A model generated the notes under the pieces. The model was not told where the DNA came from. It was given only the letters and a program-made list of their open reading frames with translations, and made no database searches. DNA of 554 bases from Escherichia coli (GTDB lineage Bacteria; Pseudomonadota; Gammaproteobacteria; Enterobacterales; Enterobacteriaceae): the NCBI RefSeq assembly GCF_003334765.1, contig NZ_QOWT01000112.1, one strand, 5' to 3'. The translations under genes and the position numbers were made by a program. Every line of letters begins with the position of its first letter. The first letter of the stretch is position 1. Below are positions 1 to 554 of the stretch, piece after piece.

Positions 1-554
1 ATCACCAGGTCAGCCGAGAAGCCCAGGCACGCCAGGTCTTTCAGTTCATCACGGGTCATCGGGCCGGTGGTGTCCTGTGAACCTACAGAAGTCATTTTCG
101 GTTCGCAGTACGCGCCCGGACGAATGCCTTTCACACCGCAGGCACGACCTACCATTTTCTGCGCCAGCGAGAAGCCGCGATCGCTCTCAGCGACATCTTT
201 CGCCTGACGGAACACATCACTGTGCGGCAGGCCAAGTGCTTCACGCGCTTTGGTGGTCAGGCCACGCCCGATAATCAGCGGAATACGGCCGCCAGCACGC
301 ACTTCATCAATCAGCACGTCGGTTTTCAGTTCGAAGGTTGCCAGCAGTTCGCCGGTTTCGTGGTTACGCACTTCACCTTTGTACGGGTAAACGTCAATTA
401 CGTCGCCCATGTTCAGGTTAGAGACGTCGACTTCGATTGGCAGTGCACCCGCATCTTCCATCGTGTTAAAGAAGATTGGTGCAATTTTACCGCCGAGGCA
501 CAAACCACCGCCGCGTTTGTTCGGCACATGTGGAATATCATCGCCCATAAACCA
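1..554 (-). CDS. acnB: Aconitate hydratase B (aconitase 2 / 2-methylisocitrate dehydratase), internal fragment, partial at both ends; codon phase set by codons at 552-554 (Trp) down to 3-5 (Val), with positions 1-2 being the first two bases of the next codon
   Basis: Seen in sequence: the reverse complement reads as 184 sense codons with no stop across the full window, and codons are those preferred in enterobacteria (CTG Leu, CCG Pro, CGT Arg, GGC/GGT Gly, AAA Lys, GAA Glu). Established knowledge, from memory: the translated peptide matches E. coli AcnB at about residues 255-439, including the ...[28 protein letters not shown](M) segment at the start of catalytic domain 1. No alignment could be run; the residue numbering is approximate. 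Confidence 0.9.

Follow-up and report, generated by a model that had tools for sequence, protein, structure and literature searches.

Does a 554-nucleotide stretch of Escherichia coli DNA (hereafter the window) that encodes a Gln-Asp motif of an aconitase belong to a functional enzyme, does the motif occupy the position of the substrate-binding glutamine of mitochondrial aconitase, and from which copy of acnB was it sampled? A single frame is open across the whole window, running on the minus strand from position 554 down to 3 and comprising 184 codons without a stop; every other open reading frame is at most 65 amino acids long and was taken to be due to chance. The encoded peptide is identical to residues 255–438 of PDB 1L5J chain A at all 184 positions (184/184, E = 1.2e-122). 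The window therefore holds an internal fragment of the acnB coding sequence, codons 255–438 of 865 (3..554, minus strand), that exits both window ends. The fragment corresponds to positions 246–428 of the TIGR00117 model and scores 367 bits, which lies below the cutoff because only a fragment is present. A full-length gene with an exact match to the window reaches 1716 bits against a TIGR00117 cutoff of 1287 and 1575 bits against an NF006690 cutoff of 782, i.e., it passes both AcnB equivalog models, in agreement with the gene identity proposed in an initial annotation made from the letters of the window. An Rfam scan of both window strands gave no match at E ≤ 1. The gene itself is ubiquitous, being annotated in all complete E. 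coli genomes surveyed (5426/5426).

Translation of the reverse complement reads G-S-Q-D-T-T-G from minus-strand codons 83–63, as the initial annotation had stated; this reading is not a matter of chance, and the numbering of the motif as fragment residues 158–164 is likewise correct. Because the window protein matches 1L5J 255–438 at every position, the motif can be assigned to G412-S413-Q414-D415-T416-T417-G418 of AcnB (residues 412–418; 63..83, minus strand), with the Gln414 codon CAG at 77–75 and the Asp415 codon GAC at 74–72 (together 72..77, minus strand). The window represents an internal part of a working acnB gene and extends from the end of domain 4 through the linker into domain 1, of which it includes the first 56 residues.

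To place the motif within the domain architecture, we analyzed both the full-length protein and the fragment. Pfam assigns Aconitase_B_N to residues 4–156, Aconitase_2_N to residues 168–382, and Aconitase (PF00330) to residues 472–818 of the full-length protein, a layout that agrees with the published AcnB order of HEAT domain, domain 4, linker, and domains 1-2-3 (PMC8184944) and with the permuted order that had been claimed. On the fragment, Aconitase_2_N (PF06434) alone was detected (residues 1–128, model positions 78–204 of 204, E = 5.6e-56), which marks the C-terminal part of the swivel region, i.e., domain 4 and linker, residues 255–382 (171..554, minus strand). The large-subunit model NF001614 (aconitase/3-isopropylmalate dehydratase large subunit) covers AcnB 383–823 (model positions 2–414 of 415, E = 1e-51). 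Subunits of isopropylmalate isomerase (IPMI) match on either side of this boundary. Fragment residues 9–94, corresponding to AcnB 263–348 (273..530, minus strand), match residues 71–160 of 3VBA_A, a separate IPMI small subunit equivalent to domain 4 (phmmer, E = 0.0046), and a phmmer search with AcnB 374–563 matched the N-termini of archaeal IPMI and homoaconitase (HACN) large subunits (4NQY at E = 4.7e-9, 4KP1, and 4KP2). In these alignments AcnB 379 falls opposite residue 19–23 of the large subunits; since the IPMI/HACN N-termini align from there, they mark where domain 1 begins. Because Aconitase_2_N ends at 382, NF001614 starts at 383, and IPMI subunits match either side, we conclude that the window crosses the junction between domain 4 and domain 1, as had been claimed, and locate this junction at residue 382/383, window position 170/171. 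The remaining 56 residues (AcnB 383–438; 3..170, minus strand) form the start of the catalytic, large-subunit-like region.

The position of the motif within domain 1 required some correction. GSQDTTG is the earliest conserved active-site loop in domain 1, but it lies ca. 30 residues in, and not at the start of the domain as initially described. Moreover, a Pfam scan, which had been proposed as a check, recovered Aconitase_B_N, Aconitase_2_N, and Aconitase on the full-length protein but left the motif in the gap at residues 383–471: the PF00330 match begins at residue 472 with model position 102 of 463, and the motif is outside its envelope. We regard this gap as a limit of sensitivity and not as counterevidence, because the NF001614, IPMI/HACN, and 3VBA matches place the region. 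The motif is thus inside the catalytic-domain envelope as defined by NF001614 and the IPMI/HACN alignment, not by PF00330. In the alignment to the IPMI/HACN large subunits, VGSQDTTGP of AcnB lies opposite AMVHDITGP and AMTHDGTTP of the large subunits.

In the pig-heart aconitase–isocitrate structures, Gln72 of mitochondrial aconitase (mAcn) forms a hydrogen bond to a carboxylate group of the substrate, which sits in the cleft that separates domains 1–3 from the swivel domain. A direct phmmer comparison of AcnB with mAcn did not reach the motif region. As pairwise phmmer of AcnB against the PDB reaches mAcn in domain 3 only, we built a family profile. An exhaustive search for AcnB-like proteins returned 4199 proteins at E ≤ 0.001; 16 near-full-length representatives with 32–72% identity were picked without regard to the motif, resulting in a profile of 17 sequences. 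Searched against the PDB, this profile matched mAcn at E = 1.4e-19, and its segment containing SQD aligned to VAMQDATAQM of mAcn with posteriors of ca. 0.8–0.99 over the motif columns, although the domain-1 stretch of the alignment is marginal when taken alone (independent E = 0.0069) and becomes unreliable a few columns downstream. The numbering of the mAcn chain was checked (L64-R-P-D-R-V-A-M-Q72-D73-A-T...C99-D100-H101). On the basis of the profile alignment and this verified numbering, Gln414 and Asp415 are the positional equivalents of Gln72 and Asp73, which upholds the proposed homology of SQD to the AMQD of mAcn around Gln72. The further comparison with an LMQD motif in AcnA and IRP1 was right for AcnA, but IRP1 contains ILQD (and IRP2 LLQD).

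The representatives also revealed how the motif is distributed relative to other catalytic positions. SQDTTG is kept in 10 of the 17 AcnB-like representatives, and all of these (10/10) retain D497-S498-H499, Cys710, Cys769, Cys772, N775, and R791; the three cysteines of aconitase B are the ligands of its [4Fe-4S] cluster. Six of the 17 are without the motif, and in each of them (6/6) the D-S-H triad is missing as well, along with two of the three cysteines that bind the cluster, suggesting that these motif-less AcnB-like sequences are apparent pseudo-enzymes. In one of the 17 (P0002), Gln is replaced by Pro with all else intact. Since motif and catalytic residues are lost together, we consider the loop part of the catalytic apparatus. 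By analogy with mAcn, Gln414 would contact the substrate in AcnB. To our knowledge, Gln72 alone is listed as an active-site residue at this site; the adjacent Asp is conserved, and we know of no established substrate contact for it. A structural role is more likely for Asp415, an acidic residue common to the superfamily, and the initial label “Gln-Asp active-site motif” gives the Asp somewhat too much weight. A literature search on aconitase Gln72 found no open-access text. The residue class at the Gln position is Gln in AcnB, AcnA, IRP1, and mAcn and His in IPMI and homoaconitase, i.e., judged from these sequences, Gln at the motif tracks the substrate class and is aconitase-specific.

We next asked which acnB copy the window represents. 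At least 99% identity to the window was found in 50 of 5426 complete E. coli genomes. All genomes with an exact match (13) or a match at 99.8% (8) have two places encoding acnB (21/21), and the exact match proved to be an acnB linked to citrate lyase (cit) genes both in strain 746, from a dog in Scotland, and in strain CE2050, from a gull in Australia. Among genomes with a single copy, the best reach 99.5%, corresponding to 3 differences in 554 positions, and represent canonical alleles of swine enterotoxigenic E. coli (ETEC); the one such genome examined more closely has its match at the canonical yacH-acnB-yacL locus. The genes specific to the island that carries the cit-linked copy occur in 33 of the 5426 genomes (ca. 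0.6%), are always chromosomal, and are at least 99% identical; genomes bearing the island also carry two citF copies. The sampled window is thus most likely the accessory copy and not the housekeeping acnB, an assignment made by exact match only. A plasmid origin was considered and rejected: the E. coli matches in PLSDB are records of 0.4–4.9 Mb that are apparently mislabelled chromosomes, and none reaches 99%.

On the island, a divergently oriented GntR regulator gene is followed by an array of genes for an Amidohydro_2 protein and an MFS transporter and by citC, citD, citE, citF, citX, citG, and acnB. The island acnB, which closes the array, starts 25 nt after citG with its own GGAG ribosome-binding site. 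The hydrolase belongs to PF04909 (Amidohydro_2), with 4-sulfomuconolactone hydrolase as its best NCBIfam match (E = 8e-40, below cutoff), and the MFS protein resembles organic-anion transporters. The island further carries an integrase as well as IS3, IS21, IS66, and ISL3 elements. Its segment from citC to citG is collinear with that of K-12 and 97.8% identical over 5207 nt, and homology to K-12 acnB (96.5%) sets in at base 2 of the start codon and ends ca. 27 nt past the stop. From these comparisons, the island operon is best described as a mosaic of E. coli-like genes. The literature searched contains no description of a second acnB or of a lactonase/citrate-lyase/aconitase cluster.

For an assessment of divergence and selection, the K-12 allele and the swine ETEC allele served as canonical comparators. 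The island acnB differs from K-12 at 84 of 2598 nt and at 7 amino acids (dS 0.128, dN 0.0039, omega 0.03). The changes are E3K, I71V, R638H, G858R, Q862P, T863S, and A864V, and ATG replaces the GTG start; within the window, all differences are synonymous (12/12). When compared with the ETEC allele, the island gene gives an omega of 0.04. The canonical alleles themselves are 54 sites (2.1%) apart, with zero amino-acid changes. The island gene encodes the full 865 amino acids with all catalytic motifs intact, including, in the full-length protein, Cys710, Cys769, Cys772, and D497-S498-H499, sites that are outside the 554-base window. The full reading frame, the intact motifs, and an omega of ca. 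0.03 are in line with the initial description of the enzyme as functional and not degraded, and they support the view that the island acnB is intact and under purifying selection, with aconitate hydratase/2-methylisocitrate dehydratase activity predicted. As a simple explanation for its divergence, an origin in a foreign species was rejected, since the island copy is 96.8–97.3% identical to E. coli canonical alleles that are themselves 2.1% apart.

Three other explanations of these data were weighed. The similarity of SQD to MQD might be due to chance and not reflect positional equivalence to Gln72/Asp73: a Q-D dipeptide is short, Pfam leaves the motif region unaligned, and pairwise phmmer to mAcn falls short of it. 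However, three independent alignments agree in register, namely the phmmer match to IPMI/HACN (E = 4.7e-9), the alignment of the AcnB profile with mAcn, and NF001614 over 383–823. The spacing to a downstream (D/C)-H motif is also near-equal, with 30 residues in AcnB (Q414–H444) vs 29 in mAcn (Q72–H101), and the loss of the motif together with the catalytic residues argues in the same direction, making chance resemblance scarcely credible. More weight can be given to the idea that the window stems from the housekeeping yacH-acnB-yacL locus of some E. coli lineage. Canonical acnB is present in every E. coli genome, the window contains no island-specific flank, the swine ETEC alleles differ from it at only three positions, and a canonical allele outside the sample could in principle equal it. 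Nevertheless, we consider this origin unlikely given that every match of at least 99.8% occurs in a two-copy genome, that the cit-linked copy provides the exact match in both genomes inspected, and that no single-copy genome among the 5426 exceeds 99.5%.

Even if the window derives from the island, the sampled copy could be a redundant, decaying duplicate in which the motif has merely not been mutated yet. The island acnB sits among pseudogenes and IS fragments, and all 7 of its amino-acid changes are unique to it, as against none at the 54 sites that separate the canonical pair. An Enterobacter homologue of acnB downstream of citG, moreover, is reduced to 42 codons and contains a stop. Decay is difficult to reconcile with an open frame of full length in which every catalytic motif is intact, with the gene's own ribosome-binding site behind citG, and with an omega of 0.03–0.04, although the latter may partly predate duplication or reflect gene conversion. 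The gene is also identical in sequence in the unrelated dog and gull isolates, and the citG-acnB layout with an intact 865-aa gene is found in Citrobacter amalonaticus as well. We therefore regard decay as very improbable, if not quite to the degree of a chance motif. Overall, we hold with high confidence, as far as the sequence comparisons go, that the window is a fragment of a functional acnB in which Gln414, the homologue of Gln72, lies in a domain 1 loop, and that the sampled copy is most likely the accessory one at the end of an operon.

The accessory copy may also be regulated differently. For canonical acnB, RyhB targets the ribosome-binding site by base pairing, the sequence UUUAAAAA, which spans the stop codon, is cut by RNase E, and apo-AcnB binds a stem-loop just past the cleavage site (PMC4150767). 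The leader of the island acnB differs from the canonical one; because homology begins at the start codon, the island gene is without the native promoter and 5' leader. At its 3' end, the equivalent of the cleavage site is UUUAAGAA, and the stem-loop has 3 pairs (-3.1 kcal/mol) as compared to 5 GC-rich pairs (-9.6 kcal/mol) in the canonical gene, values that are descriptive in view of the short sequences. The island acnB probably escapes iron-dependent control by RyhB and apo-AcnB.

Related arrangements occur in other Enterobacterales. In C. amalonaticus, a GntR gene is followed by genes for Amidohydro_2 and CitMHS, citCDEFXG, an AcnB gene, and then oadG and oadA; the linked AcnB has 865 amino acids, is 88% identical to E. 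coli AcnB, and contains an intact SQDTTG. The Enterobacter sp. array comprises GntR, Amidohydro_2, MFS, citDEFXG, and then the 42-codon N-terminal AcnB remnant with its stop codon, which has the island-specific E3K and the GGAGTTAA junction in common with the E. coli island. A scaffold of the Klebsiella oxytoca type consists of GntR, Amidohydro_2, CitMHS, citCDEFG, and oadGAB, and upstream of its GntR gene are two other aconitase-family genes, PrpF, an Iso_dh gene, and a 73% identical AcnB paralogue. The motif of this paralogue reads GSPDTSG, i.e., Gln414 is replaced by Pro, the same change as in P0002, while the other catalytic motifs are intact. On a further enterobacterial contig, the module of GntR, Amidohydro_2, and MFS genes adjoins an AcnB gene whose C-terminus is canonical, with a YacL-family gene close by. 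The linked AcnB proteins of the E. coli island, C. amalonaticus, and the K. oxytoca-type scaffold all score above the AcnB equivalog cutoff (3/3).

From these arrangements we infer a dedicated route of import, hydrolysis, isomerization by AcnB, and cleavage by citrate lyase. Its parts would be the GntR regulator, a LigI-type Amidohydro_2 hydrolase, an organic-anion transporter, CitCDEFXG, and AcnB, with an oxaloacetate decarboxylase in some species. In such a scheme, a tricarboxylate lactone or related compound, e.g., isocitrate lactone, would be imported, the Amidohydro_2 hydrolase would open the lactone ring, AcnB would isomerize the hydrolase product to citrate, and citrate lyase would split citrate into acetate and oxaloacetate. 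In E. coli, gene conversion may have made the interior of the island acnB uniform with the resident gene, the island copy would escape post-transcriptional control by RyhB and apo-AcnB, and the Gln72 equivalent could act as a specificity switch, with Pro taking its place in the paralogue of the K. oxytoca-type scaffold. The combined proposal, in which the accessory acnB is a working part of an Enterobacterales catabolic operon for a lactone-to-citrate route, with a gene-converted interior and a Gln specificity switch, is tentative, and we think it rather less likely to be right in full than wrong in some part.

The findings differ in what they contribute. Motif and junction are already known, textbook features of AcnB structure that hold nothing new, and they add little beyond showing that an annotation made from sequence only was right. 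The accessory-operon context is the sole part that might merit more work, and its value is modest: a second, intact acnB wired to citrate lyase, a lactonase-like hydrolase, and a transporter hints at an undescribed route of tricarboxylate utilization. In addition, the Gln72 equivalent is flagged as a candidate specificity position, occupied by Gln in aconitases, by His in IPMI and homoaconitase, and by Pro in one clade of AcnB paralogues.

Among known systems, the closest is E. coli AcnB itself (1L5J; TIGR00117, bifunctional aconitate hydratase 2/2-methylisocitrate dehydratase), an 865-aa protein of the order HEAT-4-1-2-3 that shares its catalytic motifs with the sampled copy. K-12 acnB has its native promoter and leader, whereas the sampled copy terminates a citrate-lyase operon carried by a mobile island. 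The mitochondrial enzyme (pig/bovine; 7ACN, 1C96, 1ACO) has homologous domains 1–3, in which V-A-M-Q72-D73-A-T corresponds to V-G-S-Q414-D415-T-T of AcnB. It differs by the order 1-2-3-linker-4 and by being without a HEAT domain (PMC8184944). Sequence similarity between the two in domain 1 is detectable by profile only, and Asp100-His101 of mAcn stands against Cys443-His444 of AcnB, which is outside the window and was aligned transitively through IPMI. AcnA (RVLMQDFTGVP), IRP1 (RVILQDFTGVP), and IRP2 (RVLLQDFTGIP) (2B3X, 3SN2, 6VCD) have Gln-Asp in the same loop as AcnB, yet their domain order is 1-2-3-4 and the Gln is preceded by Met or Leu, as opposed to Ser in AcnB. After AcnB itself, the nearest solved relatives of its domains 1–3 are the large subunits of IPMI and homoaconitase (LeuC, HacA; 4NQY, 4KP1, 4KP2), matched at E = 1e-34 with full-length AcnB and at E = 6e-59 with the profile. 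These enzymes have domain 4 as a small subunit of its own, and the Gln position is occupied by His (VHD, THD; LVHE in E. coli LeuC), consistent with the different arm of their substrates. At the operon level, the K-12 citCDEFXG-citT operon for citrate fermentation shares the citC–citG segment collinearly with the island but has citT in the place taken by acnB, and a dpiBA-facing promoter region instead of the GntR regulator, Amidohydro_2 gene, and MFS transporter.

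The exact DNA match of the whole window is a second acnB copy, not the housekeeping gene. This copy (locus L001, positions 2719–5316, in NZ_CP023353.1) is the terminal gene of an operon in which a divergent GntR gene is followed by genes for an Amidohydro_2 hydrolase and an MFS transporter and by citCDEFXG (L002, positions 18719–29605, in the same record; a second example, L006, is in NZ_CP073621.1). The operon is carried by an IS-rich island with an integrase, and the island copy has the same sequence in a dog isolate from Scotland and a gull isolate from Australia. Among 5426 complete E. 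coli genomes, island-specific genes occur in 33, compared with 35 extra acnB places. A few acnB duplications in these genomes are of another kind. Three acnB places fell on plasmid-labelled records; the E. coli "plasmid" matches in the plasmid database PLSDB are records of 0.4–4.9 Mb and are probably mislabelled chromosomes or chromosome fragments.

The flanks of the island copy (L001, positions 2690–2718 on the 3' side and 5317–5376 on the 5' side) were compared with positions 1555–1615 and 4214–4253 of L003. The native leader, where RyhB pairs, is absent from the island copy, the RNase E site reads UUUAAGAA rather than the UUUAAAAA of the comparator, and the stem-loop bound by apo-AcnB is weaker (-3.1 kcal/mol, against -9.6 kcal/mol in the comparator). 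Judged from these flanking sequences, the iron-dependent control that acts on acnB after transcription (PMC4150767) probably does not reach the island copy. Within the protein, five of the seven private amino acid changes, E3K, G858R, Q862P, T863S and A864V, lie at the extreme termini (residue 3, L001 positions 5308–5310; residues 858–864, positions 2719–2745), and E3K is shared with an Enterobacter AcnB remnant. This terminal clustering, together with the shared E3K, is consistent with gene conversion to the resident acnB, which would have homogenized the interior and left ancestral island sequence at the ends.

Several Enterobacterales likewise link an AcnB gene to genes for citrate lyase, an anion transporter and a LigI-type, lactonase-like Amidohydro_2 hydrolase. 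This is so in Citrobacter amalonaticus (L014, 9136–20804), where acnB directly follows citG as in the E. coli island, in an Enterobacter sp. (L010, 8133–16572), on a K. oxytoca-type scaffold (L011, 1–18795), and at L012 (3–5682), where the adjoining AcnB gene has a canonical C-terminus. A literature search found no published description of this linkage, and the genes may constitute an uncharacterized utilization pathway for a tricarboxylate or lactone.

The K. oxytoca-type scaffold encodes an AcnB paralogue (L011, 5377–7965) that belongs, with the AcnB-like protein P0002, to a clade reading GSPDTSG or SPDDAG at the position of AcnB 412–418. Since proline replaces the Gln72 equivalent while the Fe-S cysteines, D-S-H triad and other motifs are kept, the pattern suggests altered substrate specificity at the very residue marked in the initial annotation. 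Six metagenome AcnB-like representatives in our family alignment A1 (P0028, P0035, P0039, P0043, P0048 and P0080; 744–838 amino acids) retain full length at ~32–40% identity, yet in all six SQDTTG and the D-S-H triad are gone and only one of the three cluster cysteines is left; these proteins look catalytically dead.

Just past the low-coordinate end of the window in L001, AcnB carries Cys443-His444 (SFCH), and Cys443 is kept in all 11 AcnB-family representatives that retain the remaining catalytic residues. Isopropylmalate isomerase and homoaconitase large subunits instead have Asp-His (FDH) at this position, and mitochondrial aconitase has Asp100-His101. Since the profile-to-mitochondrial aconitase alignment is unreliable there, the equivalence is drawn only through transitive alignment.
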